From an uncultured Planctomycetia bacterium (GTDB taxonomy: Bacteria > Omnitrophota > Gorgyraeia > Duberdicusellales > 4484-171): a stretch of DNA of 64,000 nucleotides. This document shows, one piece after another, positions 9,657 through 64,000 of this stretch. Within the stretch, counting starts at the first letter, position 1. Each line of letters begins with the position of its first letter. The stretch is from positions 762 through 64,761 of the forward strand of contig CAZPYY010000001.1 of the NCBI GenBank assembly GCA_964590995.1, given 5' to 3'. The translations under genes and the position numbers were made by a program. The notes under the pieces were generated by a model. The model worked only from the letters and a program-made list of their open reading frames with translations. It searched no databases and had not been told where the DNA came from.

Positions 9657-9674
9657 TGTTTAAGCTAAATACTT

Positions 9675-9760: not shown

Positions 9761-9772
9761 CTAATTGCGGGT

Positions 9773-10483: not shown

Positions 10484-10496
10484 TCATACCCCCTCT

Positions 10497-16434: not shown

Positions 16435-16437
16435 ATT

Positions 16438-16547
16438 AGAAAGTTATAAGTTGTAAGTCTTGAGTTTTAAGTTTTTTAGAAAATGTATAAATCATACGGC
16501 TAAGTTCCGCCTTCTTAACTTATAACTTAAAACTTATAACTTAAAAC
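16438..16547. repeat. AT-rich tandem/inverted repeat element (AGTT[A/T]TAAGTT units) forming a roughly 30-bp-arm hairpin in the mcsA-mcsB intergenic region
   Basis: left arm aagttataagttgtaagtcttgagttttaagtttt (16441-16475), right arm cttaacttataacttaaaacttataacttaaaact (16515-16547); the right arm is itself a direct repeat of aacttataacttaaa. Confidence 0.5.
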
Positions 16548-26432: not shown

Positions 26433-26760
26433 TTAATATTTAGGTATCGACGGTATATGTATCGGTGGTGGAGTATACACTGGCGGCATATCAATATTCA
26501 CAGGGAATTGCGGCTTAAATGGGTCTCTGTAATTAGGTGTCGGCGGTATATACACTGGTGGTGGATTATATACCGGCGGCGTATAATGATTATTCATCAT
26601 CTGCTGATATACCGGATTCGTTTTTATCTCCGGCGGAGGGTTGTAAATTCTGTTTATGTTTGGAAATTGGCGCATAGTGTTAGGGCCACGGTAATTCCTA
26701 ATAGTATCTATTAGCGGTGTTTTTGGTACATTAAACTGTTGTAAATCCCGCTGAAGCTGT
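26433..26760 (-). repeat. coding low-complexity Pro/Tyr-rich tail (PPVY/NPPP repeats) at the C-terminus of the giant protein
   Basis: protein ends ...YTPPVYNPPPVYIPPTPNYRDPFKPQFPVNIDMPPVYTPPPIHIPSIPKY; DNA shows reiterated ggcggtata[tc]ac units. Confidence 0.7.
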
Positions 26761-29700
26761 TGCTGATAATTAGGTATAATTCCCACTGGTGTCTGTGGTA
26801 TAAGTGGTTCTCTGTAGCGCTCAAAAGGAGTTTCTCCCATAATATGTTTTTGTCGCCAAGTATCAGACATGCTTGGGGTAAGCATATTGGGTCGAATATG
26901 ATAATTTGGCTGTGTAGAATCATAACCTTTGGTATGAGCTTTCCACACTCCGGGAGCAGCAACGCCTTCAAAATTATATATACCTGGCCAATTTCCTCCC
27001 CTAGGGAAATAATGCCATTTAGATACATCCTGGTCTCTAATCATTATATCTAAATTCGGCATATTTAAATTAGGGTGAATTTCATGAATTTTATGCGAAA
27101 TTACTAAAGGATCATTGTAAGTAAGGTGTGCTCCAGCAATATCTTTAAAGTCATTTATACGATAAGGGTATATTGAATCATAACGATTAATACCAAAAGC
27201 TTTAAAGCCAAAGGCATTATAAACAGGATCCCCTTGCAAAGCTATATTCTCCCACTTTTGGTCCAAACTTGAAAAATCACGCCAGGAAGGAGACCCAAGA
27301 CTTACGAGATGAACTCTGTGTTCATCAAAAAGCTGGCGCACACGCGGATCTAAATCCGGAGAAAGGAATCTTTCTCCTACCAAATTCCCACCGCTGTACA
27401 TCACTGCCATTATTCTGCCTTTTTCTCCTACTATATCTTTAGCCTTTAGCATTGTACCGTCTAATCTTAGCTGAGCATCTAGAATATCCTTACCTGGATT
27501 CCGTATATCTCCGCTAAAAATATTTCCAGTCCAAGAATGTTCAATAACTTTTATTCCACTCAGCTTTAGAATTCTTATAAAAGGCCGATTTCCAGTAACA
27601 TCTACATTTAAATCTCTACGGTTGTAAGGATTAAACCCCAGTAAAGAATCATCAACACCAGGAATAACTATCGCAACATCTATTTTTGGTATATTTTGAT
27701 TTATCTGGGGCCTTACTGATTCTGCTAATAATGGTTCAATGGTCTTTAAGGAAAGCGCTGCAATTGCACGATTCCAAGTATCAGGTTCCTGTTTTAAAGC
27801 GTCTGCCAAAGGATTCACTAACTGAGGATTTTCATGCACTCTAACTCCTAAATTAGCTATTGCGCTTCTACGCACAAATACGGAATCATCTTTTAATGCC
27901 GGAGTAAGTAAATTATCTACAGAAGGTTGCTCTAACCTCCCTATAGCATCAACTGCTACGCTCCTTATCTGCCAAGATTTATCATCGAGAAGCGGTTTGA
28001 TGTCGTTAGCTATATTAGGATATTGAGTAATTTTGCTTCCTAAGCCTTGCACTGCAATACTGCGTATTGTGTTATCACGCACTGTATCCAAAGCAATGGA
28101 AGTTAAGGGTGCTAGGGTAGCCGGTGAGTTAATTCGGCCTAAGGCTAAGGCTGAAGCCCGGCCTAAGCCTAAATTATCGCTATGTAAATTATCTTTGATT
28201 GCTTCTATAGCTTCAGGCTTATTAATATTCCCCCAGCCAAGGCCAAGGGTAGCTGCTGAACGGACTAAGGGGTCAGGATCTATCTTAGCTATCTTAATAA
28301 AAGACTTACTTACGGCAGGCATATCCGTTACTTTCCCACTTAAACCTTCTACTGCTGCTAAACGTACCTTTTGGCTATCGTCTTCTAAATAAGGTATTAC
28401 CTCTTTCAAAGGAGCATCGGGAACTTTAGCAAATGACTGGATAGCCGTAGCGCGGATAATCGCATTATCTTCCTTAATTATCCGGCTTAATTCAGTAAGC
28501 GCCCTCTTGTCCTCAGTAAGCCCTAAGGAAAATACTGCTACTTGTTTAGTAGGAATATCCGGACTATTCAGATAAGGCTTTATCATATCTACTGCATATC
28601 CACTCTTTGATTGGCCTAAATTTAATAAAATTCTCTTCTGAAAATCTGGATTATTACTCTTCTTTAATATCTCTTCAATGGGCTCTTTCAACTGAGGATA
28701 ATCTTCAATATGAGGAGATAAAGCAATCGCTGTTGCCTGTTGTATTCCTACTTCTTTATCGTTTAGCATCCTGGTTATCGCAGCTATTGCTTGTGGTTCT
28801 TTACTTCCTCTTAAACTATTTACGCAAGCTAACTTTACATTATTATCCCTCGCTTTATTTAAAAGCTCAATAGTTAAATCGGTTATCTGGGAATTTTCTT
28901 TTATTTTGTCAGAAAGTACTGCTATAGCTGCTGAGCGAACTAAAGGGTCGGGGTCAGTTTTGACAATTTCGATAAATGAATCCTTGATTTGTGGTATATC
29001 TGCCACTTTGCCACTTAAAGCATTTATGGTTGTCAAACGTACAATTTTACTCTCATCATACAAATAAGGCTTCAAATTCACAATTGGCGCCTCCGGAATT
29101 TGAACAAATGAATGTATGGCTATGGCGCGGATAAGCTCAGTGTTTTCCATAATAGTCCGGATAAGCTCGGCAAGCGCTCTTTGATCTTTGGTAAAACCTA
29201 AAGATAAAACTGCTGTTTGTTTAATGGAAATATCCGGGCTATCCAGATAAGGCTTTATCATATCAACAGCATACTTGCTCTTTACCTGAGCCAAACCAGC
29301 TAAAATTCTTTTTTTGGTATCTTTATCTTTCCCTTTTAATGCCTCATCAAGAAACTTTCTTAATTGAGGGTAATCATCTACATAGTTTATCAAAGCAATA
29401 ACTACCTCGGGCGGAATCGAAGGAGAAATATCACAAAGTTTCTGATACAACGGCTCAATTAGCTCCGGATGCTTCTTTAAATTATTAAGGTATACTAAAA
29501 CAGCTGTATACCCTATCTCTACCTTGGGATTCACAAGTACATATTGGACATCCTGACCTGAAGAATAATATGACTGACTTCCATCGGACCAAACACATTT
29601 TCCTGTAGTCATTATACTTTTAGAATGATATCTATTATGTTTTTTCAAATGATATTTTACAGGGCCGTTAACATCTTCCTCGCGCAAAATTTTACCGATC

Positions 29701-32700
29701 AAATCAATTATTTTAGGATTATCATCTATCCTGTCAGAAAGTGCCAGCATAGCCGCTACCCGCACGCTAACTTCTTCATCCTTATTGGAAACAAACTCAA
29801 ACAATAAATCTGTAACTTCTTGTTCTTTAAACTGTACTAAAGAAGATATTATTTTACAACGCGTTCCTGAAACATAATCTTTTGCTGCCTTGATTAATAC
29901 AGGCAAAACCTCTCTACCTCCGATACGCCCTAAAGCAAATATTACATTTGATTGAAATTCTTTATATTCAGCCTTTTCTAACAGCTCAATTAAGTATGAA
30001 GTTGCTTTTGAACCACCCAATTTACTTAACGCCACAATTGCTTCTTCCATTACATTAATATCTCTGCCTTTTAAGTTTGAATCATACTTTTTCGGATTTG
30101 AGATAATATCAATAAGATATTTTACTGCCTGGGGACTTCCTAGCTGTGCTAAAGAGAAAACAGTTAAAACAAATACTCGTTCTCTTATCTCCTCTGTAGT
30201 CCACTTATTTGGTAAAAGTAGCCTCAAAATGAACTCATGTTTAAATTCATCTGCATTGTAATCCCCCTTGAGGGCTTTCATTAATGTATCTTTGGCCAAA
30301 GAATCGCCTAAACATGCTAATACCCTTGCAGCATAGAAGGGGGTCCGAAAATTATCACTCTTTAAGGCCCTTAAATACCCTCCGTACAACTCCTCATGAG
30401 TCACTCCCAACTTAATCAAAACATCTCCTGGAGGATAAAATAACTTAGGTTCTACAATATATAAATTATGCTGCCCGGCAGCCCCGGTTGTCATCTGTAT
30501 ATAGCCATCCACTAATCCTTTCTTTATCTCGTTAGTCATCTCAGGTGCACGAAATAGTTTAGGGCTTTGGGTGGATACACACCAATAGTAAATTAAAGCA
30601 TTACCATAATTTTTACGTTTAAGTGCTCTCTCTGCTATCTTAATCTGTTTATGCGTGAAAGCTCCAGAGCCTGGGGTAGCACACCCACTGTGAAAAACCA
30701 AACTTAATAAAAGCAATATAATTATAGCCTTACCAAGAAATGATTTTACCTTGTTTAGGCGAATCCCTGCCTTGCCGGCAGGCAGGCTAAACACCTCCCG
30801 GTTGAGGACTGTCCTCAACCGCTCTTTAAGGCTTTTGCCTGTTATATTTTCTTCCCCTACCGGAGAGCTGGTCGACTCAAACTTAATCTTAAATACTTCT
30901 ATTTGAAGCCCTAATATCATATCCTGCTGTCCAGCAGGGCTGTAAGCAGGAATGATGCCAAGTTTCCTATCCTCAGCAGCCGTAACTAAAACCAAGGCTG
31001 CCGGATTTCTTATTTTTAGTGCCTCAGCAAAGTTTTTTGTTTTTTTGCGTATTACTTTCTCATAATCTCTATACTCTATAGAAGGATCATAATCATCTAT
31101 GGAAGAGTAATAATCAAACTCGATAACTGTTACTAAATTACGCGGAAAGGGCAACACAGAAAGGTTGTATTGATCTACTACTCTATCTCCGATATAGTCA
31201 TCGCAATAGTACCCTGGTATAGAAGGCGTAATCCACCAGGGCTCAATGGCTAATCCTCTCTCAACAAGGTAAGGTACCCAATTATTATTCTTAAGCATAC
31301 CCGAATAAACCCAATTATCCGAATGCTCGTCGCCATAGAAAAGAGAAAAAGGTGCTTTAAGAATTCCGCGAGCAACCAGTCTTTCTAACCATCTAATACC
31401 TGGAGCGTGTATCCGGCAAAGAGCGACAGGACAATCCAGCAATAAAGAAACTCCCTCTGATATTTTAATTGGGCTGGAGCTAAAGGATAAAGTTTGATGG
31501 TTTTGAGGATTATCAAGAACTGTGGATTTCTTAGCTTTAGAAGAAAGGGCAGGCGAAGAGGCCCCACCAGCCACGGAAGAGGTAACCTCTTCTTGAGTTT
31601 TAACCTGCCCTTTTATATTATTATACCTTTTTAAATTACCAAGGGAGAGAATTTTCTTAAATATTTTTTTTGTGTTATATATGATTTTAATTTTTTCTTT
31701 GGATATCTTGAAGAAGGTAAATATTTTAAATGACTTCCTAATCGGTGGTGCGTGTGATTTAAAATTTAATATATAAAACTGCACTGGGGAGCTGGAGGAA
31801 TTTTCTTGCTGATCTAGCATTCCTGGAACTTTTGTCAAGGCGATAATTAAGCGGATAATCCTGGAGTTTCTGGCAATCATCTCATCCCGGCTTAACCATA
31901 TGGGAATTCCTAAGTTATTGAATATAGAGCTAAGGAAAAAACTTTGATTGAAACCTTCTCCTTCCTTAATAAAATTAAGTATGTCTTTTTCCGAAAGCCT
32001 TCCTATTTCCTGGGAAATGCTTTCTAACTGAGATGTATAATGGAATAGAGGTTGAGGGATGAATATGTTAATTGTGTCAGTCAATTCCAAAGCCACTTCG
32101 TTATGCATACATCTTATAGCAAAAGTAATTGGTTTTTCAATGGCCGGCAATCTACTCATTGTCTGGTATACCCCATCAAAGATACCGAGTACAACCTGAC
32201 TGTTTGCCGGGCTCACCTTTACAGGTTGATCTTTAACTATTTTATATATACCTTCATCAATATCCTCTCCAGTTAAAAACAGGGCCCTTTCCGCCACCTC
32301 TTTACGCAAGTAAAATTCTGCCTTGCCCCTGCGTTGTTTATCCTCCAGCATAAGCCTAAAATATGGCTCATCATGCGTATTGACCAACTTAAGCGAAATG
32401 GAATAAGAGGATGATTGAATCGGCGAGCTGGAATCACCATTTTTTAACTGTTTTGCAGAACCAATAATCCTATCTTTTAACCTATTACTTAGTTGTTTCA
32501 TGAACTCTTCGCTTGTTTTTATATCAACTGTCAATGCCTGAATAACTTTAGGGTCAACCTCTGTATGTTTTACCAAGGCTTCTATTAAATAATCTAAGAG
32601 ATAATTTAGTATCTGAGAAAATACTTCTTTTTTGAACTTTACATCATGCATATCCTGCAAAGATAATAAAAGACGCTTGATTGTTTCCTTTATGTCCTTG

Positions 32701-35700
32701 GGCACACTGCTATCTGCTTCTCTGATAACCTTATCTATTTCTTCTAAGCTCAATAATTTAAATACATCTTGAAGAGAAATCTTCTCTTTTATGTGAATAT
32801 CTCCCTCATCAATAAGGCCATGTTGAATCGCAACACTAACTAAAATGAAAATTACTGCCACCTTTGTGCCGTCTCTTAGTTCGCTTCTCCACTTAAGTGA
32901 ATCAACCTTAAATATGTCTAAAGTCGTTTCATCTCCTACAACAAAATATAGCGTTTTTTCATCTTTGTTGTATCGAATCGCCACAATTGGATTGCCAGAC
33001 CAAATTGCCTGTTCAAAAGGTTGATTATCTTGAGTTAGGTACTGCAAAAGTGTAGTGCCATCTTTTGCTTCTAACTGCATTTTCTCAATAAATCTTCCTT
33101 GATCCATCTTATTCTTAACAAAATACAAACCTCCCCCATCCTCGCTAACTTGGAAAGTAAAGACCATATCTGGCGACTGTAAGTGTATAATACCCTCCTC
33201 TGTACTTGTAGGATCTATAATCTCAACAAAACCTGCTTCTTTTAACATTTTTAAATAGTCTCTCTTTGTTTGCTGCTCTTCCGCGCTTACCGGCGAGCTG
33301 GAAATTGAAGAACTGCTAGTGAGGAAACGCGGTAAAATATCTGCTAACGAAACATTCTCAATGTTTTTGACATCTCTCAATATCCTTTTAAGTTCTTCGG
33401 CGCCATCTCTTCCTCTTCGAAAACTGGTCCAGATCACAGCCTCCCAAAATATAGGGTCAGGCTTTCTCTCTAAAAATTCTACAAAATTTTTAAGGCTACC
33501 TTGATCCCAACTAATAACTGCTAGATGTCCTAATCCATGGTATCCTTCACCAATCATAGTTTTTATCCTGTCAAATAGAAGTTGGATTGCCTCTTTACCA
33601 AAATTATTTTTAAGCCTCCCTAAAAATAAACTGGCCTCTAGAACGAGACTCTGAACATGAAAGTCTTTGGAATGATCATGTAGTAGTATTACAAAGTTGA
33701 CATCTCTATGAGAAAGTATTTCTTTTAGTCCTGCCAATTCTAAGGAACCTGCTTTGAACTTCTTTATATCAATAGCTCCCTCATTAACAAGTTCTCTGAC
33801 TTTTTCTTCAATATTGTTAACAGCGGAATTGGATTCCTTTATAGGCGAGCTGGAGCCAACAAACGAAGGATAAAGGAAAGAAGAAGCTGCCTTTTCATTT
33901 ATCAACATAGAATTAAGCTCCGAAATAAGGTTGTCTACTATAAAATCGATAAATTCTTCAATGGCATGTTCCAGCGACTCGGCGACTGTGGTAAATGCGG
34001 GATTAACATTTTTATCTCTTAGGATCTTAATTGTCTTTCTTATATCCTCTATTATTTTTTCATTTATTATCTTTTCTATCTCTTCAGCAGGAGTGTCAAT
34101 AATGTTAAGAAATTCATAATGGGCGGTTATCTTATGAAACTTATCACCTATACAGGCAAAGAAATCAGCGTCAAAATCTAAAAATATAGGCCTTGTTTCA
34201 TCTTTAAAATCAGGAAGGCCATCCAGATGCACAACATGCATCTTGACTTTCCTTAGTCTTATCAATTCTGCCCCTTGCGGTATACGCAAGTTCCCATCTG
34301 CCTGAGGATGCTCACGGCCAAAATAGCAGTATTTACGCCCATCTTTTAGCTTAAACATAGCTGCATACACACCAAATTCTTCGTCGATACCTAATGCATA
34401 TCCTTGGGGATATACCTGCCATATTTCATCAATCAAATCATATAAAACACCTGCGAAAATATAGCAGTCTTCAGCGTAAGTAATACTTTTTGCTTCTTTA
34501 ACGGTCTTGGGTTGCGGTAAAATACGCAGAGGCGCGCCAGCATCTTCATGGGCGTCAATATGAATAAGTATTGCCCCCATAATACCTTTAAGAATCCGCA
34601 ACATTTCCCAATATTTATAAGCTTCGCCATGGTATTTTATCCTGGCGAATTTATTTTTAAGGGCGTTATTTACCGGCGAGCTGGAAGAATCTTCTCCTCT
34701 TATCCAACTTTTTAGTTCTTCTTTTGAAACTTTACCATAAAGTTCTTTTATCGAGCTTATTTGCTGTAATATAACTGAAGGATCGATGCCCTTCTCATTT
34801 TTAAGGAGGACAACTCCGGGGTATCGTGTCAATTGCGCTTCTCTACCTTCCTGTTTAAGTAAAGCGCACACTCTTCTTTCATGAGATGGTACCGTGCGAA
34901 AAACAAGCCATTCTTCAATCGGGCTACTCGAGACGCAATTCCTCAGGCTTTGTACTTTCGAGGCCGAATTACACTCATTGCCAGCAACTGGCGAATCATA
35001 ACCAAAGGCCGCAAGAGAGCTGGAAGAAGCATTGGGAGCTTCGGGCTGGTACAATTCCGGAAAGAATTCTTTGAGCTTGCCGGAGAATTCCTGATGCATT
35101 AATTGCAGGAATTCCGCAAGCTCATATCTGGAATAGGTTCTGCCTAGTTTATATAACTCTAAGCGCAGACTAGTAAGTTCGTCTATTTCCTCCAGCATCC
35201 TGTCATTGACCAGGGCGTTAAGGAAGCTGAAACGCAAGGAACGTGCGTAATTCATAGTATAAGGAATATTATTTGTCACCCAGAGCGCTTTGTAAAGTTC
35301 AACCGGATGCTCCAGAAGCATTTCGAAAAAAGTAGTTTTGTTAAGCCCTGTTTGGTCGAATCCCTCGTGATTGATGTTTGAAATTGCCTTCATTATCCGG
35401 TTAATCCACAAATTATTACGCCACAACCTGCTAAATGTACCTCTGAAGTCTTGGGGAATCTTATCAAGGTCCGGCCTAAATAGGAATGCTGTCGCTAATA
35501 CATCAAATTTACCTTGAACGAACCTTTTGTTAATTCTAGCACCGCGTAAGTAAGGGTTAGACAACGGTCCCGCCTCCTGCGGAAGCCTTAATACCTTAAG
35601 GTCCATCAAATCTTCTATATGCACACTTTCTGCGACAATAAATATTGCCTCTTTATCATCATAAGGATAAAATTCGATGTCCCCAACTCTTTTTCTATAA

Positions 35701-38700
35701 AGAATATCACCCTCTGTTACGCCTTCGGCATCTTCAATGGAAATAGCCCGGTCCCGCCATCCTTCAAAATGCTCAATTGTCGCCATTTCTTCTTCTGTCC
35801 TGATATCGGCTTTAGGCCAATCCGGATGGCCCAAAATAATCTTTCTCATATCAAACAACAGATCCGGTAAAAAAGAAATAATGGCTGTTGTATTCTTTAA
35901 GTTAAATGTGATATTCTCAACGCTACAGCCCGAGAATATCTTGGCCAACAACTCCCGCCAAGTCTGGCAAAGATTAAAGGTAAGGGCCTTGTTGCCAATC
36001 AGGTTATTTGCCCGTTTAAGCAAGCTGGTAAGTAAATCCTGAGTGGCGGAATCAAGTGCATACCCGGCCAATAAATCCTCGTGGGTTAACCTCTCAAACG
36101 CCGGCGCCGAGGAAGCACCAGAATCACCTTTCGTAGGCGAGCTGGAAGAATCAGCTCTTAGCTCGTAGCTGGTAGCTAGTAGCTGAAAACTATCCGCTAC
36201 AGGCGATGAGCTATTATCTAGCAGTGAGCTGGAGCGGGGGGAAACGAAAGACGAGGTATGAGAGACGAGGGATGAAGACGCGATACGCGAATCTTCCCCC
36301 GGTGAGGCGGCGGAGACGTTAGAGTAATGGTTACTACCCTTACGATTAATATACTGAATCATATCTTTCGCCCATGAGAATATTCTAATGAACAATAGTG
36401 GCTGCTCAGACTCTTTAGTTATCATATTAATAAGAGGTTTATTATCAAGGCATACTCGCACCAAGGCCTGATGTGTTCTTACCAGTTCATAGATAGTGCT
36501 TTTAAATTTTTCACTTCTGACATATGCCTCTTTAGCAAAGATTGTTTTTTTAGGACCTTTTTTTCGTTCTCTGTATTCATCTTTATAAATCCACTCAAGT
36601 GGCAGATACATTTCTGCCCAATTTCCTTTAGCTAAACGCTGTAAATTTTGCATTGTAAAACCAATCTTAGTGATTATGCAATTATCTAAATGCCCGCCGG
36701 CAATGATTAATCTTTGTCCCTTAGATAAATCAACCCTCCAATCTTTTACATGAATAAGGTTAACATTAGGCAATCTTGATTTTAGATAAGAATATCTTTC
36801 CTTAATAGGCATAATGCTGAAATATTGAATATTTGGGAAGTGGTATTGAGCGGAAATTGAATCGGTACGCTTTGTAGCGAAAGAATTGGGTTCTTCACCT
36901 ACCGGCGAGCTGGAGTCAATTGCTCCTTCCTCTCTCAAAGTGTTGACTACGCTATACAACCATGAGTTGATGACGAATAGTCTTGCAATAATACTTGCGA
37001 TATCATTTTCACAATCATATCTTCTAAAGTAATCTTTCAACAATCCCTCTATTTTGGCGCGTTCAATGGCTGTATCGATGACTGTTATTTCTTCGGCCGG
37101 TATGGTCTGTTTAGGATATTCTTTAAGCGAAATCTTATAACTATAAGCAGGTTTTCTTGTAACTTTTTCCCTGTCTTCTTCATCTAGCGCTTGCCTGGAG
37201 AAGATAGCGATAGAGCGTTTCTCCAGTGCAAGTTCTGATTGCGGATACTTTCCGACAAAAACTAATTTGTCTACTAATTTTCTTAATACTTCGTAGTTTT
37301 CCAGCATAAACTCTGATGTAGATAGACCTTCTTTAAAATTAAGTACGCTAAATTGTAAGTTGCCATCCTTATCAGCCGTTAGCCCGTTCTCCATGACCTC
37401 TCTCCTTGCCGATCTGGAGATATTTACCCATAGCGTTGGATGGAATAGCCTTCTCCCACATTGTTCAATCACAAACCTCAATCGCCTCTCAATGAAGTGC
37501 GGTATGTTTTCGTGTGATTTATAACTCTTTATCTCATCGGGTGGCGTACTAAGAATATCTTCTTTAGCTAAGAAGTCATGCATTCTTACTATATTTTTTG
37601 CGCGCGGGAGATTGAACTTCGTAGTTGCGCCAATTATATAGATAAAAGAGGCTGCTCTCTGGATGGGGTCACTAGTATAAATTCCAAAATACGGATTGCT
37701 TGATATGAGGATATGTTCTTCGTAGTCATAATTTATAACTGCGGCTAAGAATCTTTCAAACGGAGCAACGGGCAACAGTCCTTTTCTTGCCATCCCTTCC
37801 AAATGATCTGCCATTTCAGCAAAACCATTATCTCTCAGATACTTAATTGCCATCTGTAGGTCTTCATCTTTCGGCCCTTTTCTATGCAACTGGTCAAACT
37901 CCTTACCAATACCTTCCAAAATACCCTCCAAATCTCTGCCGATTTCTTTTCTAGCCGGCCTTGGGATGCCTGGCATCGCTCTGACTATATCCTCTCCCTG
38001 CCCGTCCGGCAAGCGGGTCCCTTCGGCGGAGGAGGAAGAGGAGGAATTATTTGTCTTTGCAATTTCCTTCAGCACATTCAAAATCTCCTGCCGCAGCGAT
38101 GTGCGACTAAGTTTATTGTCTATGGCGGGCGAGCTGGAAGATTTTCCTTTCAAATCCAGAATCTCCCGTAAAAGATTCCTTTTAACCTGTGCATACAGTT
38201 CCAGTAATACTGGTGCTGTGCACAGCTTCTTGGAACCCCTGTGTATCAAAGATTCCTCAAAGTCAGGGATATCTTTTTTATGAAGGGCATGTGTGGGATT
38301 TAGAAATGCAGACATTAAGAATGTCTTGTTATTTATTCCAGAAAAATAACGTACCAAATGCGAAAGTACTGATTGATCACTCACTAATATTATATCTGCC
38401 TGCTCTACCGCGTCTGCTCTAACAATCTCTATATTATGGAATTTATAAAACCGAGCAAGCCTCTCTCGCATAGCCACATAACCCCGGCAGTAAGAAATAA
38501 TTTTAGTAATAAACTTACAGGAAGACTTTTCTGCTCTAAGCGTTGTACCCGCAGAGAATATTTCTATGCCCATTCTATCCAATGGATCTTGGAGCACTAA
38601 TTCAAGCAATGGACTGCGAAAGACATTAACAGTACATACAACACGAATGCGCTTAATTTGTTTAATTCCTCTGGCTATAAAGATATTCTCGACTGAACGC

Positions 38701-53700: not shown

Positions 53701-56700
53701 TGTTGATAAGCTTCCTTCTCTGTATGTTTAAGATGAACCAGTAATGCTTTTGGCGAAGGCATTAATCCTAACGCATGTGCTCTGTAGAGAAATTGCATAA
53801 ATCGATCATAGAAATCTTCATTAATTAAAACCAGTGGCTTTTGATTTCCAGAATTTCTTAGATTAAACGAAAGAAGCTCACCAATCTCATCCAGGGTACC
53901 AAACCCACCAGGAAAGGCTGACCCACCCAGACTCTTAAAAATAAACATTGCTTTACGTGTGAAAAAATAGTTAAAAATATTCGTTATGTCTTGATATTTA
54001 TTCGATAGTTGTTCATGAGGAAGATTGATACATAAACCAACTGAATTAATAAACTCACGCAAATTCTTATCAACGCTAAGCGCACCTTCGTTTGCTGCGC
54101 GCATAATCCCCGGACCGCCACCAGTAACTACCGAATATCCACCCCGCACTGCTCTCTTACCAAAACGAACAGCTTCTTTATAAAAATGATGGTGGGACTT
54201 GAATCGTGCCGAGCCAAAAGCAAAGAGAGCTGGCCCTAATTCTATGAGCGCACTCTTAGACGCTAGCCATTCATTGATAGTTTGTTCAAAGAATCTCTCT
54301 GAAAGTATGTTGTCGCCTCTTTTATTCCTACTGGATACCGGGCTGCTGGCCTTGTTCTGATTCAACAAGAACATTGAACTGGAAGATTTCTTTTTCCTTC
54401 TTGAACTCTTTTTCTTCTTTTGTGATTTCGCGGAAACAAGATCATGCGTTAATACACGGGAAATATCAATTTCGTTTTTATCGACTCCTTTGGCTTTAAC
54501 TGACCCGCGTATGACACCGTAATGAATAATCTTAATCACTTTTGCGAATGCTCTCTCAAAAGAATAAGAAAAATCCTCTGGCTCTACGGTAAACGCCGCT
54601 GCCAGCATCTTTGCCAGGAACAAGTTACTGTCTTTTATCTCGACAGTAGTCATTACCCTTAATATCTGCTTTAATCTCATTAAAGCAAATTCATTAGTAG
54701 AAAATACTCTTACAACTTCATCTTTTATCCTATCAACATACAATCTTCCTATTTGGCTATCATCTAAACTATCAAGATATTCGTCAAAACCAAGAAGGTA
54801 ATGCCCTAAATGATAAGGAGGTTGATCAGGATACCTTTTACGTACATCTTCCTTTAGAAATTTAATTATTTCTTCTCGTGGTAAGCCTTGAGCTAGCAAT
54901 TCAATAAGCTGGTTAAACGAAGACAAGAAAGCTCCACCGTCGTTTTCATCTTGTAACTTGCCCGCAAACGGGCTGCTGGAATGGTTAAAATAATTATTGC
55001 AACACCTGAGAGCATCATTAAAAATTTCCGCGATGATGTGGTGGGAAAAGTGTTCTCTGCCTATTCTTATATTATGCTCTATTATTCTCTTTCTAAAATC
55101 GGCATCATCAATTATCCTCACCATAAGCATGATAGCTTTCTTTGAAACTGTATCAGTATGAGAGAAAAATGATTTTCTATCAATCAGCGGCAGTTTAATT
55201 ACCTCATCTTCATCAATTTCCATGGTTTCTATAGCCCATAACCCTTTCGCACGTATATCAATTACCCACACCGGGTGAGGATAAACAACAAATGGCCTCT
55301 GATAATAAGCAGCCTCTATCTTAGCATTGCAAAAACCCTCTTGATACGATGGTATTATTATAAGGTCAGCTGCTTCATGTACCTCCCGCAGGCTAAAAGG
55401 TCCAAAGGTTCCCTCAACAGACATTACAAGATTGACCCTCTTCTCTTTGGCAAAACGCTCTAACAGTAACATATAACCTATACCTTCGTCTGTCGCCGGA
55501 TGGGTAATAATGAGGTGCATTCGCCGGTGCGGATATTGCTGCTGCAATTGAGCGGCAATCTCAATGGCCAGTTCTAAATTCTTGCGCCTAATAATTCTAA
55601 GCGGCGCGATCAACAATATGTCATCGGGATGAATATTATGAAATGCCCTGAATGCCTCTCCTGACCTTCTGTTCATGTGCGGTAAATTCTCGAAATCCCT
55701 TGCGTTAGGAGCTATGGCTACCCGCGTATCATATTTATTAAACATCGTTAACTCCTGATACGAATTAATAACTACCGTATAGAGGTCTTCGATCCCGCCA
55801 TAACTTCTACCACCCGCGATCTTATTCAGCCGCCCTGTGACCTTCTCGTTATCGGTCTCGTATTGCTCACGTTCCCACCAGTAATCATGATTGTGGGTAA
55901 TGGTAAAAATAGTCTTATCTTTCATTTCATGTTTTAATTCATTCATAATCTCAACCACCGCGAGCGACAATGCAATATTTACCGGAAGCGACAACACATT
56001 CTCCGGAATGACAAAATCTATGTCATTAGATATAATGAATTTCTTCAATCTTGACTTTATACAATCTTTTAAAAGATGGAATTTATCGATTACCTCATCA
56101 AGTTCCTGATTGAGCTTTCTCTGTTCAGTTTCTTCCTCAATGCTAAGGCCTTCTCTTTTCTGTTTCTCCTCAAGCTTATCTAACTGCTTAGCCAGACTGA
56201 ACAATTGTCCTGTTAATTCTTCAATCTCTTTATTCTTAAAATGGCAGAGAGAATCAACACTCATCCCATCAGCAATATCACTAACGCCGTCAACCTCACC
56301 GGCATAGAAATATACCTCTGCCCCACCCTTCTTGCACACCTTTGCCCACTCTATTAATTCATAGGTAACGCCGTCGCGCGCTTTCTTGCTTATGCGAAAC
56401 GATAAAAACAAAAATCTTTTACCGGCAGCCAGGCTCCTAAGTTGTTTAAATATTTCGCCTTTTTTACCTAATAACTCAAGAGTTGAAATAGCCTTATCAG
56501 CGTTAGTTTGCGGCTCTTCTATAGCCGAACTGCTGGATTCTTCACCATTGTGCTCTCTTATTAATGTTGTTGCAATCGGGCTGCTGGAATCTTTGTCCGG
56601 GCTAGGTAATGTCTTTAATCTCTGCTCTATATCCTCTAATTGTTCATCTAGCCAAAGATGAAAATTATACGAATTAGTGAATTCATCAATAAAATCAAAT

Positions 56701-59700
56701 GCCTTGATAATCAACTCTTTTATTAACTCCAATCTATTCTCATCGGCATCGTTTAAAGTAATATTAAAGAAAGGCTTACTTATGGGCATTTTTGTTTCTT
56801 TTGCTATTAATGCTGAATGCAAATCTTGTAACTTCTTGCCGTCTTCCAAGATCTTATGTTTCTCGCCCGTTAATCTAAATCTACCTTTTGGAAAATCCCG
56901 GAAGGCAAGGATGATCGGCCAAGTTTTTAAGTCTAATTTAAATAAGTCTTTTAACCAAACAACAAGATCAACAATACAAGCAGTTGACCTAATATGGATT
57001 CCCCGATGATCCTGTAGTTGGACTACAAAAGTGATGGAAGTCTTCTTAATTGACGAGCTACAGAGAGTAAAAAGGGACCTGGCCCCTTTTATGTTATTTC
57101 TTAATGACTCTTTAAATAATCCTCTAGTCCACTGTAAGGTATCTTGATCGTTAATTTGTACTGGACTTGCGCAATGTTTCTCATCAATAGTAGTTATATC
57201 CACAGGCAAGCTGACGCGAAGGGATGCTGGATCTATGCGTATGCCTCTGGGCCCTTTTCCTTTATGGACCGCGGCTGCAAAGTATGCGCCTCGGACCTTA
57301 ATCAAATACACAGTGCCAGAGTCACCGCCGACAGGTTTGGCCCCTAACGCCACTATTATATCTTTTTTTATAAAAACCGTATATCCGCTAGATACCGTAT
57401 CGTTATAGCCGCTCACCAGAGTAATAAACAGTCCTTCGTCTAACTCGGATGCTATGGGAACCGGCAGAAGAGCTCCTCCGCGTACTGCTTTTTTCTCAAT
57501 TACAAGCATGGCCAGGTCAACATTTGGATCTCGCCAGATTACCCCTGCCTTACCTATCAATTCATCAGTGTTAGTTCTAAGTATAACCTTATCTCTTTCT
57601 TTAACCACATGGGCACAAGTTAAAAGGATGTAGGCATCTTTTGTCTGTTTCCATACAAAGGCGCTCCCTAAACGGGCAATCTTAACAATCCTTCGAGAAA
57701 ATGCTCCTTTTTCTCTATCCTGGGCAACCTTTTTTTCTAGATTTTGCCTTGCTAATTCTGTCTCAGGAGCTGCTAAAGCTAAAGCTATTTCTTTCACATC
57801 GTCTCGGGGGGTGATTGTTCTTAAGATAAAGTCGATATAATACCTTTTTTCTCTTCTTTGTTCAACGGTTGCCGTAAGGGATTTCAGAGCTAAAGCTATT
57901 TCTTTCACATCATCGCGGGGGGCAATTGTTCTTAAGATAAAGTGCATAGAATAACCTTTGATTGCCCGGATAAGTAAGTCCAATTCCTCAGCTGCATCAG
58001 CTATTCTTTCAGCTGTTGCTTTGAGATCAAGGTTATCTTCAGCAACAATTGCTTTAAGCATAAAACCGACGCAGTAAGCTGGTATTCCTCTTTGGGCCAA
58101 GGTGTTAGTGCAAAAGTTAAGAGCTAAAGCTACTTCTTGAGTGTCATTTCGAGCAGCGATTGCCTTCTGAATAAAGTTAATAGTATGCTTGTCTATTCCT
58201 GTTTGCCATAAGGTAAGTTCAAATTGTCTATTCTCTGCTAAAACAGGTGAAGAGGCAAGCCATCCATTTTGAATATTTTTGTGCAAACTTATCTCTTTGA
58301 ACCTCTGGCCTAACTCAGGCAGGGTGATATCCAGCTCGCCCCGGATAAGTTTGAATGCCTGTTCATATTGTCTGGCGACTCGAATAATACTTATTTTGTC
58401 ATGGCTTATTTCATAGGCAGCCTGCATCATTTCCAGCCACTTAGTGTTATTGTTTTCTTTATGGGCATAATACAGCTTAGCTGCTTCTTGCAGATACTTT
58501 CCGAGAAGTTCCTGGGATTTGCTGAAATAAAAATCGACAATCTTCCTTTTTTCTTCGTATTCGTCTCCTAATTCAAAATGGTGCACGATTTGTTCAAAAG
58601 TATAATCTGTACCGGCAAAAACATCCATCAACCAGCCATTCACCCCATGTTCAATGTATTCAGCCGCACAGCCAGTTTTTGTGGCGATATTTAAGTGGCC
58701 ATTAACGGCTGCTCTTCCATCAGACGTTCCGCCAGCCTCACGGGTTGAGCGCGGCATGCTATTCCATACATCGCAGGCCTGGGTAGCGACTTTCATAATC
58801 TCAGTTCCCGAACCATCGACAAAGATAAATTTGCCTTTCATATCCTCTCTATCAGCCATTATCTTAAACCAGTCTACCCAATCCTTGCCGGCTGCATCGC
58901 GACCCACTCCGCCCATGAAGAAATTCCCCGCCAGGCCATAAGAATCACCCCATGGAGTCGGATACAATTTATCTCTCTCGCCTACAACCCAGGGAAGAAG
59001 GTCAAACAATATGCGCTGCTCTTTATACTCAACAAACCTGCGCACCAGACCAAACAAAGGCCTATCTTGATATTCGAATCCATAACCCTTTGTTGCCTCT
59101 ATGGTCTTGTTAAGCTGCGTTTTCATAGAACAACCTATCTCGTAAAGCACCTTCCCTGTAATTTGCTCTCCAGCTAACTCAAGTTCAAGAAGCTTTTGGC
59201 CCTTCCACTGCTCCGGACAAGAGCCGTTGGTGATCGCTATAACCTTATCAGTATTATCAGGCACAATGATCAGCTTGGTAGTCTCAGCATGCTCTTGTGA
59301 TACAGCATTGATAACTTTGACTCTTGAGTTTTCTGCCAGCCGCCTGGTCAAATTCACTCTACCGTCTCTTACTATATCTTCCGGAACCAAGTCAGGGCCG
59401 ATATTTTCTCTCAACCACCAGGCATCAGAATAAATCCCTAGCGCGGCAGTTTCCGGAGTATGAGTTGTGAAAAGGACTTGCGTATTCGCAAAGATGCTTT
59501 GCTCGCCCTTTTCTCTAAACTGGTCATTATCGAAATATCTAATATCATTCATCATTGCCTGAAGCAGAAAGAAAGTCTGAGCTTCGTTGCAACGTAAGAT
59601 GTCCGGAGCAATCCCAATTTGCTTAAAAAACTCAACATACGCCCGTCCTAAGAAAGCCATTTGTCGCACCTTTCCCGGCTCTCTAGGATAAAGCCCATAG

Positions 59701-62700
59701 AAGATTTCCGGCTGGCGCACCTGTAACACCGGAATATTTTGCACTAATGCTATATACATCCGGGCATTGTAATCAAAACCCCTAAAATTAACATTAAATC
59801 GGAACGCCTCTTTCCCTGTTTCCTTAGAACCTAACGGCCTTAGGCCTTCAATATTATTCCAATCAATCCCTATATAGCGCTTGCCATCATCATGCTTATC
59901 CACATAGTGCTCATACAACGGCATAAACCCGACAGCTCGCAGGCCAATAAGGCCAAATCCTATAAAGGTTTCACCTGAGAGAAAACCCAAGCCACCAGAA
60001 GCCTGCGCCTGTTGGGCAGTTTGGTCTTTGACCACATCTAAAAATGCCTCCATCGTCGCATCAAGGACAAACGGCCCCTGCCTTAAATATTGCTTCAAGC
60101 CTTCAATATCAGTTATCGGGCTGCTGGATTGCTTACCCAAAATATGCTGATCATTTTCCCAATCTTTAAGTATTCCCTTTAATGGTTGTGGATAATGTGT
60201 ACAATCTATATCAAGCCCGAGCATCTGGCCATAGATAAGGGTAAATTTAAAGGCCGCGGTACGCACATCGACAACTGGCAGCATGCGGGTAGCATTATAC
60301 ATAATATCCAGCACTCCCTCGGGACATTGCTGCATATATTTCATAACCAGCTCAGCCCAGGGCCTGTTAGGAAACCTATCATGGTCTTCTAAGTCTTTTG
60401 TAGTCACGCTCTTATCCAAATGATAGTGGTAGGCATAAATACGTGCCGAGGCATCTTCAAGACATGCCTGAAGATATCTGGGCGAAAAAGACTCAAATAG
60501 ATAGCCATTTCCTGTCAGAGGGTCGTAAAACTTTTTCCCGGTTTTCTCCTCCCATACCGGTATCCATACGTTTAGAATCTGCTGAGGGGGAGCGCCGGTA
60601 TAGCTGGAAACAAGAATTGCCGCGGTTATCATAAATTTTTTATCGGCCATACCTGCGGCTTCGCGCGGCGGTATAGACCATTGGGCTGCTACGCTGGTTG
60701 CGCGAATAGCCGGAATCGAAACAGGAACATTCCAGGGGCCAAATAAGAATTTCCCTTTAAGTTTTCGCGAGTATGCTGTCATCTGATAACTCCATGTCAG
60801 ACCTAACGTATCATCCTGGTGGGCCTTGCCCGCCATATATACGTTAAATCCAAGACCACCACCAAAGCTACTTTCGCTCTTCTGAGGATTTTCGCAAACA
60901 TAGTCTAATCCACTTAAGGTGGTATGTTTGAAACTCCTGCCGGGCATCAGGGTAATAAATTTAATCCACTTATAATCACAGATGCGCCGGGCCTGAATAA
61001 GTAAAGGCCTGATTTTCTCAAAAACAACGCCCCACCAGTCTTTAAGCAGTCTGATAAAGCGCTCGGCCGCCCTTTGTTTCGCCTCCCATAATTCATATTT
61101 GTCTAGTCTCTTCTGTCCCATAGACTCTAATTGTTCGGGAAGCATCCAGAAAAACGGCCAAATAGAGTCTTCGATATAGAAATACTTTTCTTTAAATCGG
61201 CCGAAACGTACCTCGTCAGCCGCCATCACCTCTTCGTGTTCAACCCCCACTGTGCCAATACATCGTGCTTGCTCACTTATGAAGTACCAGGGATCATATC
61301 TTCCGCTCTGCTGGGTTATTTCCCCGAGTATCTGCCCATCCCACCCCGTTGTATTCATTACCATAGCCGTATCACTAAATACCGGAAAGGCGGCAAGTTG
61401 CACTGTATGACAAAACGCCATAATACTTTCTTTTGTCCTCTGCAGAACACTGATATCTTTAAACTCATGATGATAGAAGATGTCAGGAACACCGGTTGCG
61501 GCAAAGGCCTCGTGCACCTGTAAAATATCAAGCTCAATTCCTAGCGCCTCAAAGGTCTTGAATGTTGCTCGGCTATAATAAATTGCCTGGGCCAACCGGG
61601 ATTCGCTGTCAGGATATTGCGGATACAATTCTCCAGCAACGTCATCAGTTAGATGAATCAAGAGTACAACCGCATCGCCGGGTGAGCCTTTCACCTTTAA
61701 GCGCCATGCCTCAACTTTGGTTTTTATCCTTTTGTTGTATAGAGGAAATTCTACTTCTATTGCCTGATCAAGGCTATAGCTCTCGATATCATCAGAATGA
61801 AGCAGGTCATCCCAATCTAAAACAACATTGTTAAGCTCAGGGGTCTTAACTGGATTTGTCCACGAAATGACCTCTTTCATGCCGCCTAGATCACCTTTAT
61901 CGCAAGAACGATTAATAACTTCGGCCAAAACCGCAAAATCTTCTTGGTTATCCCCTGTTTCTTCTTCAACGATAAGCACCTTTCGCCCCGATTCAAGCGG
62001 AAGCAGGGACTGCATATCCCCGCTATTCAAAATAACCACCTGGGTTACGTAATTAAGGGCCTGGGAAATATCGTCATCAGGATGTAAGCCTTCGGAAATT
62101 ACCAGTTTCTTTCCTGACATTGAATCAGGAACTAAATAGCCGTCAATCAATCCTCGAATATTATGCGCCAATTCATCAGAGCTAATATGCTCTTCAACTT
62201 CATAAAGACGAAATACCGCATGCTTCATTGACTGCTGTACGCCTCGGAGGTATTTAGGTACAGAAAAGAAGTATGTCCCTCCGTTGGCAGGTAATCCCCG
62301 CATAAATCCTCCGTTTAAAATACCTAAACCTCCGCCCATTGCCCCTTCAAGGCCATACTGAGACATAGTTGCCTCTGCGCACATCACCCCAATCTTTTTA
62401 TTTTGTAATTCCTGGGCAACAGGATAAACAAAAGGCTGGTCAGAGATATTCCGCGGTTTAATCTTTTTCTTCACTTTATATATTCTTCTCTGAAGCGTCA
62501 GCTGTTTATCTCCCTTTCTGATTATTAGTTCAACCTCTATATTCTCCCGGCCAAAACGCGGGTCCAAATGATAAGAATAAATACGCATATTAGCATCTCT
62601 TACCTCCACTTCTGCTCTATCATTTAAGTCTACCTCAAAGCTTAATTGGCCATCAGTCTTAAACTGCAAGTAAAAATTCAGTCCTTCTCTAGCTTTTATC

Positions 62701-64000: not shown

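Follow-up and report, generated by a model that had tools for sequence, protein, structure and literature searches.

Is the product of a bacterial gene that runs for tens of kilobases in one reading frame a single protein or many, and, if many, where is it cut? The question is raised by a 64,000-nucleotide stretch of DNA from an uncultured bacterium (GenBank assembly GCA_964590995.1, contig CAZPYY010000001.1, positions 762 to 64,761), hereafter the window, whose right-hand part carries the 3′ end of a real gene of more than 90 kb. This giant gene is a chain of ~33 protein-sized cassettes, and its modules are joined by a recurrent five-residue peptide, [S/A]-S-S-P-[V/I], first seen by reading the translation. 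The open reading frame (ORF) that encodes it, whose strand had to be corrected to minus, occupies the following part of the window:

26433–63998, minus strand: 3′ part of the giant ORF, 37.6 kb, 12,521 sense codons (63998 down to 26436) plus a stop codon (26433–26435), 5′ end beyond the window

The initial annotation had described a single open frame truncated by the window at its 5′ end, with no rival ORF above 130 codons, and both points hold. The frame runs through the right edge of the window, so that the 5′ end of the gene is missing from it; the ORF listing contains no second ORF longer than 130 aa between 26.5 and 64 kb, and the longest stop-free stretch in the other frames across the gene is 162 codons. 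The earlier figure of at least 12,518 residues, which counts from the first TTG in the ORF listing (12,521 being all stop-free codons), stands as a lower bound to a far larger gene. The GC content, previously put at ~35%, was measured at 0.40 window-wide and 0.37–0.46 along the giant gene. A codon-usage log-odds score trained on the window's 28 ordinary genes prefers the open frame in 25 of 25 consecutive 500-codon segments, and therefore the whole stretch looks like native coding DNA.

Two neighbouring proteins were found exactly in 16–21 contigs from independent JGI and ENA assemblies, and contigs L001 and L003 match the window at 99.98% identity; JGI 3300009431 and 3300013117 are among the samples in which the organism occurs. 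Four long contigs carry the giant gene with product calls of 25,848, 25,853, 27,770, and 30,257 aa, the computed start being at contig base 1–3 on all four; the longest call, on Ga0171658_1000072, is truncated at contig base 3. The true gene is therefore longer than 30,257 codons and 90 kb. These contigs (L001, L002, L003, and L006; JGI, 82–290 kb) all begin within the giant gene, 25,848–30,257 codons upstream of its stop, two of them at points no more than five codons apart, and the repeated assembly breaks suggest a repeat or a strain-variable segment there. The start of the gene is absent from every assembly reached, and a metagenome contig scan with the first 400 residues of the window's ORF gave no match.

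The peptide that joins the modules is strongly over-represented: SSP[VI] occurs 23 times in the giant protein against 0.34 expected, and SSP[VIAFL] 28 times against 0.85. Thirty [S/A/T]SSP sites and ten SSSS[VILMAF] sites, a variant without proline, stand at module borders, giving ~40 junction sites in all, 80–1,140 residues apart. Information is confined to the five positions, with none in the flanks at either protein or DNA level, and no copy lies inside any Pfam envelope of the giant protein. By comparison with the 30 SSP sites in its 12,521 residues, the 8,560 residues of the ordinary genes contain 3. In a middle block, the junctions lack proline, with six SSSS[I/V] sites at residues 3713, 3967, 4376, 4851, 5447, and 5890. 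The motif is not mentioned in the literature searched, Kizina et al. 2022 lying outside that search. The junctions are listed below by position in the window, with the residue number in the giant protein:

63537–63551, minus: SSSPV, residue 150, coded TCC AGC AGC CCG GTG
60114–60128, minus: SSSPI, residue 1291, TCC AGC AGC CCG
58242–58256, minus: ASSPV, residue 1915
56574–56588, minus: SSSPI, residue 2471, TCC AGC AGC CCG
54966–54980, minus: SSSPF, residue 3007, TCC AGC AGC CCG
54336–54350, minus: ASSPV, residue 3217, GCC AGC AGC CCG
53007–53021, minus: SSSPI, residue 3660, TCC AGC AGC CCA
46320–52850, minus: middle block, residues 3717–5893, with SSSS[I/V] junctions and mixed codons
51999–52013, minus: ASSPI, residue 3996
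46971–46985, minus: SSSPV, residue 5672
44907–44921, minus: SSSPM, residue 6360
44271–44285, minus: SSSPV, residue 6572, TCC AGC TCG CCT
43896–43910, minus: SSSPV, residue 6697
43212–43226, minus: SSSPV, residue 6925, TCC AGC TCG CCT
41850–41864, minus: SSSPV, residue 7379, TCC AGC TCG CCT
41235–41249, minus: SSSPA, residue 7584, TCC AGC TCG CCC
39366–39380, minus: ASSPV, residue 8207, followed by a 20-aa leader common to the junction at 9029
38703–38717, minus: SSSPL, residue 8428
38124–38138, minus: SSSPA, residue 8621, TCC AGC TCG CCC
36900–36914, minus: SSSPV, residue 9029, TCC AGC TCG CCG
36198–36212, minus: SSSPV, residue 9263
36132–36146, minus: SSSPT, residue 9285, TCC AGC TCG CCT
34917–34931, minus: SSSPI, residue 9690
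34671–34685, minus: SSSPV, residue 9772, TCC AGC TCG CCG
33840–33854, minus: SSSPI, residue 10049, TCC AGC TCG CCT
33288–33302, minus: SSSPV, residue 10233, TCC AGC TCG CCG
32418–32432, minus: SSSPI, residue 10523, TCC AGC TCG CCG
31782–31796, minus: SSSPV, residue 10735, TCC AGC TCC CCA
31548–31562, minus: ASSPA, residue 10813
31467–31481, minus: SSSPI, residue 10840
30858–30872, minus: TSSPV, residue 11043, the last junction, ahead of the predicted exported HEAT module

What lies between the junctions was assigned to families by Pfam profile search, matches below the cut-off being reported as weak. Some 20 of the 33 modules have no detectable family, and ~10 distinct Pfam families are supported, of which HEAT alone is repeated and confined to the last module. 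Comparing the giant protein with itself brings out nothing repeated beyond the HEAT block, a pair of helical repeats, and the junctions. The modules that could be characterized, with glycosyltransferase abbreviated GT, S-adenosylmethionine SAM, helix-turn-helix HTH, and low-molecular-weight protein tyrosine phosphatase LMW-PTP, are as follows:

60117–63539, minus: M02, residues 154–1294 (1,141 aa), GT-B-like distant paralogue of M03 (blastp against M03, 23% identity, E 9e-14); no Pfam family and no PDB match at E up to 1
58245–60116, minus: M03, residues 1295–1918, glycogen-synthase-like GT-B (GT5; Glyco_transf_5 26.6 bits, above cut-off; weak GT1 and Phosphorylase matches)
56526–58244, minus: M04, residues 1919–2491, helical repeats, then an S1C protease, then an HPr-like domain
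57174–57701, minus: HtrA-like (S1C) serine protease domain of M04, triad H2130, D2161, S2227 (Trypsin_2 28.8 bits)
56583–57068, minus: HPr-like domain of M04 (GIHIRST), 35% identity to P0026 771–930
54969–56525, minus: M05, residues 2492–3010, GT1/GT4 glycosyltransferase (Glycos_transf_1 32.2 bits; homologous modules in P0030 and P0020)
52851–54338, minus: M07, residues 3221–3716, tandem LOG, or 'lysine decarboxylase' (PF03641 115.6 bits, two stretches)
50862–52001, minus: M09, residues 4000–4379, HTH DNA-binding module (HTH_24 23.8 bits, above cut-off; Sigma70_r4 below)
44910–46319, minus: M14, residues 5894–6363, radical-SAM-like (Radical_SAM E 0.03; CX3CX2C at residue 6059)
44274–44909, minus: M15, residues 6364–6575, SAM methyltransferase cassette (weak Pfam match; 36% identity to a duplicated methyltransferase cassette of P0005)
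43899–44273, minus: M16, residues 6576–6700, small membrane module with 2–3 hydrophobic helices and junctions on both sides
38706–39368, minus: M21, residues 8211–8431, SAM methyltransferase (Methyltransf_4 26.9 bits, above cut-off)
38028–38705, minus: M22, residues 8432–8657, LMW-PTP-like, CX5R-S at residue 8455 (LMWPc 21.4 bits against a cut-off of 23.2; homologue in P0020)
33291–33842, minus: M28, residues 10053–10236, no assigned family (34% identity, E 1e-20, to P0005 1411–1585; junction-bounded in both)
26436–30860, minus: M33, residues 11047–12521, terminal module with a signal-peptide-like segment, HEAT repeats, an unassigned domain, and a Pro/Tyr-rich tail
30681–30749, minus: signal-peptide- or lipobox-like segment KSFLGKAIIILLLLSLVFHSGC of M33, residues 11084–11106, ending SGC (hydropathy 2.23)
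27729–30431, minus: HEAT-repeat region (HEAT_2 242 bits, nine stretches)
26436–26801, minus: Pro/Tyr-rich C-terminal tail with an internal repeat

The picture of a mosaic of many different enzyme-like modules given by the initial annotation is thus upheld, as are its GT4 module, S1 protease, tandem LOG, HEAT repeats, membrane segments, and Pro/Tyr-rich tail, the last two being seen directly. Several other proposals survive in part. The HTH stands and its sigma-70 region 4 identity is sub-threshold; the radical-SAM match is weak, yet the cysteine motif is present; LMW-PTP falls just under the cut-off with its CX5R-S motif present; and for the proposed five or more methyltransferases, one match exceeds the threshold and three are weak, with those of M15 and M20 below it. 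The two GT35 modules reduce to a Phosphorylase match of 14.5–16.4 bits, whereas the kinase-like (M08) and arginase-like (M27) regions have neither Pfam support nor a PDB match at E up to 1, and the C39-like region has no Pfam or PDB sequence-search support.

LOG enzymes act as dimers, which would predict what is seen in M07, a tandem LOG pair with no junction between its two halves. In P0026, the HPr-like domain at 771–930 is a separate module with SSP junctions on both sides; in M04, a degenerate junction, CASPV (residues 2277–2281), lies between the protease and this domain in a low-confidence linker (pLDDT <50, model residues 186–202). The label HPr here denotes motif resemblance only. The signal-peptide-like segment of M33 starts 37 residues past the junction at 11043, with a lipobox atypical at position −3, and all HEAT stretches are C-terminal to it. 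This segment and the membrane module at residues 6576–6700 are the only two hydrophobic regions in the window part of the giant protein.

Comparison among giant genes reveals how these modules move. In locus L211, two copies of a module lie 6.6 kb apart, and their similarity (93% over 679 nt) extends exactly from xASSPVG to a point just short of the following xSSPL; in L213, a copy of 85% identity ends right after GASSSPVK. Homologues of M28, M15, M05, M22, and the HPr-like unit stand among different neighbours in other giants, and those for which both flanking junctions were read in sequence are junction-bounded; the GT1 cassette of P0030 and P0020, both SGGH-type, has an SGG-type junction on either side. 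M21 and M24, otherwise unrelated, share only the junction and the next 20–23 residues (VGKEPNSLTTKFTDSISAEY / VGEEPNSFATKRTDSISAQY, 83% nucleotide identity), which could be a recombination footprint or a small functional peptide:

38706–39380, minus: contains the shared leader of M21, residues 8207–8230
36135–36914, minus: contains the shared leader of M24, residues 9029–9052

Duplications and homology between giants stop at junctions, and the junction-to-junction module is therefore the unit of duplication and exchange. The type of junction belongs to the gene or lineage rather than to the cassette, and the giant gene thus behaves as a single-frame operon that is rebuilt as cassettes are shuffled in frame.

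Identity of neighbouring genes assigns the host to an uncultivated Omnitrophota lineage, Velamenicoccia family 4484-171 and close to Ca. Susulua, in line with the origin that the initial annotation had suspected. The OppB-like permease encoded near the giant gene was scanned against one genome per GTDB species, and its top matches were almost only metagenome-assembled genomes (MAGs) of Omnitrophota; it is 98% identical to such MAGs and 95% to Ca. Susulua stagnicola. Neighbouring proteins are 95–98% identical to Omnitrophota MAGs, with 78–90% nucleotide identity across 11 kb of synteny. Ca. Susulua stagnicola belongs to class Velamenicoccia, order Duberdicusellales, family 4484-171, with a genome of ~1.1–1.3 Mb (Seymour et al. 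2023); in a genome of that size, the giant gene would account for at least 7%. MAGs in the TPA (third-party annotation) records named 'uncultured Planctomycetia bacterium' (L011, L012, L013, and others; CAYVYJ01, CAZVQU01, CAZWIR01) are likewise Omnitrophota by this locus, with OppB at 96–98% and full synteny; the 98% matches of the permease scan are mislabelled records of this kind.

Five GTDB relatives (L012, L016, L019, L022, and L030) keep the downstream synteny and have a giant stop-free ORF that runs off the upstream end of the locus. L012 shares 89–90% nucleotide identity with the window over 11 kb of housekeeping genes, the similarity ending at ~25,850, while L022 and L030 share 65–70% in these genes. 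None of the five giant pieces has a blastp match to the 12.5k-aa window protein at 1e-5, and their Pfam content differs as well (HATPase_c; GT1; HEAT, HAD, and methyltransferase; NTP_transferase, radical SAM, and Pkinase). The locus is hypervariable: the place is conserved and always giant-filled, and the giant itself is replaced. L016 (JAIWAR010000005.1) is labelled 'Methanosarcinales archaeon', has 78–84% nucleotide identity to the window's housekeeping genes and a giant ORF with KDGG junctions, and probably belongs to Omnitrophota, having been misbinned with an archaeal MAG; this is of interest given that Velamenicoccus archaeovorus attacks Methanosaeta.

The SSP motif recurs in giants without detectable similarity to that of the window (L012, L022, L030, P0003, P0005, P0016, P0025, and P0026). 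It reads [S/T/A][S/A]SP[V/A/E] in L012, L022, and L030, where it lies between Pfam domains with the preferred coding AGC TCG CCG, and SSP[VIL] in P0003, P0005 (19 copies), P0016, P0025, P0026, and P0035. Other giants have other motifs: LTS[K/F]SGGH in P0020, P0024, and P0030; EGR[S/G][L/M]PNP..GG.E(V)TEPAP in P0028; and [K/N]DGG in L016. Over-representation ranges from ~14- to 400-fold across these motifs and the SSP[VIL] junctions. Where a junction contains GG, it looks like the double-glycine sites of C39 peptidases.

Constraint on these junctions comes in two layers: a protein-level layer, common to all junction types and the sole one in the SGGH type, and a DNA-level uniformity within each SSP-type gene. 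We consider proteolytic processing the likeliest reader of the former, at somewhat less than an even chance, its support including the strict lineage-specific consensus and the embedded proteases. On this reading, the chain would be a polyprotein cut at its junctions during or after translation. The cuts would yield, in a fixed order, cytoplasmic enzymes, a membrane protein, and an exported HEAT (lipo)protein; the HTH, radical-SAM, and SAM-dependent modules imply a cytoplasmic location, in contrast to the terminal module, which starts like an exported (lipo)protein. Translation of the giant would take tens of minutes, and the release of finished modules would be a benefit: a ribosome that dropped off partway along more than 30,000 codons would leave the modules already completed intact. 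Cleavage by embedded peptidases has been proposed before, at cleavage points that were unknown (West-Roberts et al. 2023, bioRxiv 10.1101/2023.11.21.568195).

The prime candidate for the cutter would be the HtrA-like protease embedded in M04, in that the aliphatic fifth residue of the junction (V/I; L/A in relatives) after Pro fits the S1 preference at P1/P2. HtrA proteases favour Val, Ile, Leu, or Ala at P1, and Ala-Ala-Pro-Val is the classical substrate of S1 elastase; as Ser-Ser-Pro-Val/Ile agrees with either pattern, M04 is named the candidate processing enzyme. The other junction motifs (SGGH, KDGG, EGRSLPNP..GG) might be read by co-evolved or different proteases such as C39. Anecdotally, the protease-family sequences read GP-x-G in SSP-type giants and GG-x-G in SGGH-type ones. 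An AlphaFold2 (AF2) model of residues 2080–2300 (pLDDT 87.7, pTM 0.83) returned HtrA2, HtrA1, MucD, HhoA, and DegS as top Foldseek matches (probability 1.0, TM-score ~0.55–0.6), and the H-D-S catalytic triad is conserved across the family. By predicted fold, M04 is accordingly HtrA-like but not a canonical HtrA. It shares the S1C fold and triad with HtrA/DegP/DegS (MEROPS S1C) and differs in that no PDZ domain was matched by Pfam in M04 or anywhere in the giant protein; an HPr-like domain follows the protease instead, ~35-aa helical repeats precede it, the whole is embedded in a giant ORF, and the family is small and separate. When 1.84 billion representative proteins were searched exhaustively with the protease module by HMMER, the family came to only 40 members, of which about half are in long polypeptides or contig-cut fragments and the rest are of ~460–720 aa. 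A word-indexed protein search with the module returned no match, not even the query, giants being seemingly absent from that database, and a scan of genome contigs likewise gave none.

Several points weigh against the proposed cleavage or against this enzyme. Members of the protease family are found in giants of three junction types (SSP, SGGH, and EGRSLPNP), and also as standalone proteins of ~500–700 aa with N-terminal signal peptides (P0006, P0009, P0013, P0014, P0017, and P0022); the protease may thus be an exported effector rather than a processing enzyme. Motif patterns were picked after viewing the data, which inflates the P values given here, the excess of junction copies being very large nonetheless. 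Hydrophobic segments lie just after junctions in three of six cases against 16% expected (P = 0.06), which is suggestive at most; in P0005, signal-peptide-like segments directly after junctions were read by eye. Selection for a cleavage site at the protein level does not predict the uniformity of junction codons, which points, at least in part, to copying at the DNA level. Finally, a surface-associated protein figures in the cited literature (Seymour et al. 2023), and that interpretation is independent of cleavage.

This last point belongs to a serious alternative, which we regard as a real though lesser possibility: the chain may remain uncut, as one membrane-anchored mega-protein acting as a multi-enzyme scaffold or as a cell 'coat' of the kind proposed for V. 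archaeovorus. The junction would then be only a short, tolerated linker, serving in-frame recombination much as introns of one phase serve exon shuffling, and would look conserved from copying. The DNA-level layer is what such copying would leave. The usual coding is TCC AGC TCG/AGC CCK, and each SSP-type giant has its own dominant codon version: TCC AGC TCG CCK and TCC AGC AGC CCG in the window, (A/C)CC GCC TCC TCG CCG in L211, and TCC AGT CCG GTT in L213. Within the window gene, three regional variants succeed one another, AGC-AGC-CCG at residues 150–3660 (nt 53007–63551), SSSS[I/V] with mixed codons at 3713–5890 (46320–52850), and AGC-TCG-CCK at 6360–11043 (30858–44921), and the gene looks as if it had been assembled from, or expanded within, three blocks. 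In contrast, the SGGH-type L212 keeps its junction as amino acids only, with codons varying freely, so that a protein-level reader exists at least there. The duplications that start and stop at junctions, the leader shared by M21 and M24, and the wholly different syntenic giants of close relatives (flanks 89–90% identical, no blastp matches) all accord with a recombination joint. However, an inert linker needs no strict five-residue consensus common to lineages that are saturated at synonymous sites (L022 and L030), and it would be awkward for a chain of more than 30,000 aa, anchored in the membrane, to carry a DNA-binding HTH and a radical-SAM module. Identity tracts of 11–14 nt are also short for RecA-dependent recombination, and RecA-driven gene conversion was rejected on this ground.

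Returning to the codons themselves, an improbable third reading takes the junction as mainly a nucleic-acid- or decoding-level signal, such as a ribosome pause (AGC-UCG-CCG), which if programmed would let each module fold before the next emerges, a StopGo-like skip before Pro, or a processivity-factor site on mRNA or non-template DNA. The codons at SSP sites depart widely from usage in the gene as a whole: AGC-(TCG|AGC) is found at 17 of 30 sites against 2.1 expected (P ~1e-12), TCG being the rarest Ser codon of the gene, and the first codon stays xCC in the variants (Ala as GCC, Thr as ACC). The same codon bias is seen in L012, L022, and L030, and the 8-mer AGCTCGCC is essentially restricted to the coding strand of giant ORFs. 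Yet the exact 11-mers, TCCAGCTCGCC at 11 sites and TCCAGCAGCCC at five, all lie on the coding strand in one frame, although the 12-mer is stop-free in all three and a pure DNA or RNA signal needs no frame. Codon versions also differ among giants, SGGH-type junctions have no codon conservation, the middle block has mixed codons, and there is neither flanking structure or conservation nor an Rfam match. 2A-type skipping requires a long conserved upstream peptide, and we know of no such skipping in bacteria. The best explanation of codon uniformity within a gene is that it arose incidentally as cassettes were copied through the junction, though part of it is unexplained.

Other nucleic-acid elements were considered and rejected: a Chi-like or ops/RfaH-like site (copies all in one frame, none in 26 kb of ordinary genes, and a codon version that varies between giants), a transposon target-site duplication (no terminal repeats, no flanking conservation), and an mRNA hairpin (no self-complementarity in the motif). 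One exact reverse-complement copy of TCCAGCTCGCC lies inside the giant gene at 58330–58340 (plus strand), where it encodes G-E-L-D near residue 1886, 25 residues upstream of the junction at 1915, with a chance expectation of ~0.03. A scan of one collection with the 14-mer TCCAGCTCGCCGGT gave at least 120 single, apparently chance matches in viral contigs and was uninformative, and a 9-nt identity of TCCAGCAGCC to the 16S 530-loop region is one that we take to be coincidence. The last explanation, an artefact in the form of a chimeric assembly, an array of decaying pseudogenes, or separate genes run together by sequencing errors at their stops, can draw on the lack of a complete gene in any assembly so far and on long contigs that all begin inside it, but is excluded for practical purposes by the same sequence from independent samples and assemblers, the 12,521 codons without a stop, the native coding signature in every 500-codon block, the intact catalytic motifs, and the documentation of this gene class in complete long-read genomes.

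The gene is a member of the published multi-enzyme 'Archaeovorin-type' giant genes. The class is therefore already known, and what is new is the junction motif and the cassette behaviour; the novelty implied by the initial annotation was too high. ORFs longer than 20 kb were found in 77 of 116 Velamenicoccia genomes (Seymour et al. 2023). West-Roberts et al. 2023 described 46 genes of more than 90 kb, the largest encoding 85,804 aa, and named the multi-enzyme type 'Archaeovorins', with the 39,678-aa protein of V. archaeovorus as type sequence and a content rich in HEAT, GT5, GT1, methyltransferases, peptidases, and Lysine_decarbox (LOG). A later study reported a 'multi-enzyme metabolic cluster' class and proteins as long as 147,155 aa (Nielsen & Lui 2026, bioRxiv 10.64898/2026.06.07.730766), with 5,761 ORFs of at least 10,000 aa in its catalogue.

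The window gene agrees with Archaeovorins in phylum and class, in a length above 30,000 aa within an Omnitrophota genome, in its GT5, GT1, methyltransferase, LOG, peptidase, and HEAT content and a weak radical-SAM match, with most of the length unannotated, in its transmembrane segments, and in fast divergence between relatives. HEAT repeats are the most frequent domain of Archaeovorins and lie in their predicted extracytoplasmic part, and here they follow the signal-peptide-like segment. Unlike theirs, the peptidase of the window giant is HtrA-like S1C rather than C39 or S8; the C39/S8 peptidase and SecA-DEAD of Archaeovorins are reported N-terminally, and the N-terminal 18,000 or more codons of the window giant lie outside the window. 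Transmembrane regions are numerous there, as against the two hydrophobic regions in the window part, and no glycoside hydrolase or NUDIX domain, both part of the Archaeovorin domain set, was seen in the window's 12.5k aa, more than half of the gene lying outside. The junction motif and cassette boundaries are not described in West-Roberts et al. 2023. With the cluster class of Nielsen & Lui 2026, the gene shares many Pfam families that tile the polypeptide with none dominant, the sugar (PF08323, PF00534) and methyltransferase/radical-SAM content of their modules 1 and 2, internal HEAT scaffolding, and sequence that is unique at the family level. Theirs are mostly of class Gorgyraeia, whereas the window gene is assigned to Velamenicoccia family 4484-171. 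Their flanks are rich in type II secretion system/type IV pilus (T2SS/T4P) and GH2 genes; the downstream flank of the window giant has instead a gene for a small membrane protein, a PilZ pair, and an Opp-type ABC transporter. The text of Nielsen & Lui 2026 makes no mention of junctions, linkers, motifs, cleavage, or polyproteins, and nothing on bacterial giant genes as polyproteins was found among the 12 top-ranked of 1,918 full-text literature matches.

Viral polyproteins (flavivirus, pestivirus, picornavirus-like) offer a parallel in organization: one ORF for many unrelated functional proteins, an embedded chymotrypsin-fold serine protease with an intact catalytic site, a short lineage-specific consensus at every border, and an internal signal-peptide-like segment before the exported part. 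They differ in that the present gene is cellular, about ten times longer, and composed of metabolic and regulatory enzymes instead of replication proteins. There is no homology beyond the general protease fold, and cleavage of the window giant is only proposed; the resemblance lies in the possible working and not in membership. Non-ribosomal peptide and polyketide megasynthases and giant repeat adhesins are likewise very long modular bacterial ORFs. The former were rejected, no condensation, adenylation, thiolation/carrier, ketosynthase, acyltransferase, or acyl carrier protein family being detected at E up to 0.1 in any module, as were adhesins (RTX, Ig, cadherin), since there is no dominant tandem repeat besides the HEAT block and the modules are unrelated stand-alone enzyme types.

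The window has 29 genes in all, tightly packed on one strand throughout, with no tRNAs and no Rfam match at the gathering threshold. Downstream of the giant lie a 171-aa protein, two PilZ genes, the Opp-type ABC transporter, an aminoacyl-tRNA synthetase, and an FtsX/MacB pair, followed by McsA, McsB, and ClpC; MlaEFD; RadA; IspD and IspF; and CysRS, Tmk, and HolB. The features nearest to the giant, and one operon further on, are:

25902–26417, minus: 171-aa protein with ~four hydrophobic segments, starting 15 nt past the stop of the giant and found in same-species contigs only; no Pfam match, absent from L012
25073–25873, minus: two PilZ-domain genes (c-di-GMP-binding type), just downstream of the giant
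12912–17038: operon of a UVR-domain McsA-like gene, McsB (ATP:guanido phosphotransferase), and ClpC, adjoining the MlaEFD genes

PilZ genes stand directly downstream of SSP-type giants in five loci, namely the window, L012 (9203–9908), L022 (8943–9212), L030 (9632–9916), and L211 (11427–12189). The genes are paired in the window, L012, and L211; for L022 and L030, tblastn gave at least one match per locus. No PilZ gene was detected behind the giants of L016 and L019, both of which have no SSP junction. Arginine phosphorylation by McsA/McsB/ClpC is a protein quality-control system best known from Firmicutes. Behind the SSP-type giant and PilZ pair of L211 (GCA_043802125.1, 12320–21400), there are glycoside hydrolase (GH) 94 of the cellobiose-phosphorylase type, a sugar-binding protein, ABC permeases, a major facilitator superfamily (MFS) transporter, and GH2, a set that fits the carbohydrate-uptake context reported for other giants.

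Giant genes make up 5–10% of Omnitrophota genomes of ~1.2 Mb, and the lack of known cleavage points kept West-Roberts et al. from splitting these proteins for analysis. A junction conserved across lineages supplies concrete predicted borders for computational cutting, structure prediction, searches for N-termini, and two-module reporters. The junction-bounded duplications, together with the replacement of the giant between species with 89%-identical flanks, suggest evolution by cassette shuffling. More speculatively, and with real doubt, we extend this to the multi-enzyme giants of Omnitrophota and similar bacteria as true cellular polyproteins with a junction code, in which the motif would be both protease site and in-frame cassette joint. 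Each lineage would mark every border with its own motif (SSSP[V/I/L], LTSKSGGH, KDGG, EGRSLPNP..GG), read by a co-evolving HtrA-like family found almost only in these genes, or by C39 for the GG types. If true, such a code would explain both how genes of 90–440 kb can be usefully expressed despite ribosome drop-off and why totally different giants occupy one locus in neighbouring species. With the junctions and the behaviour of the cassettes, the question of one protein or many, and of where the chain is cut, becomes directly testable, and, if cleavage is true, these bacteria would provide a virus-like polyprotein strategy of expression in a cellular organism.

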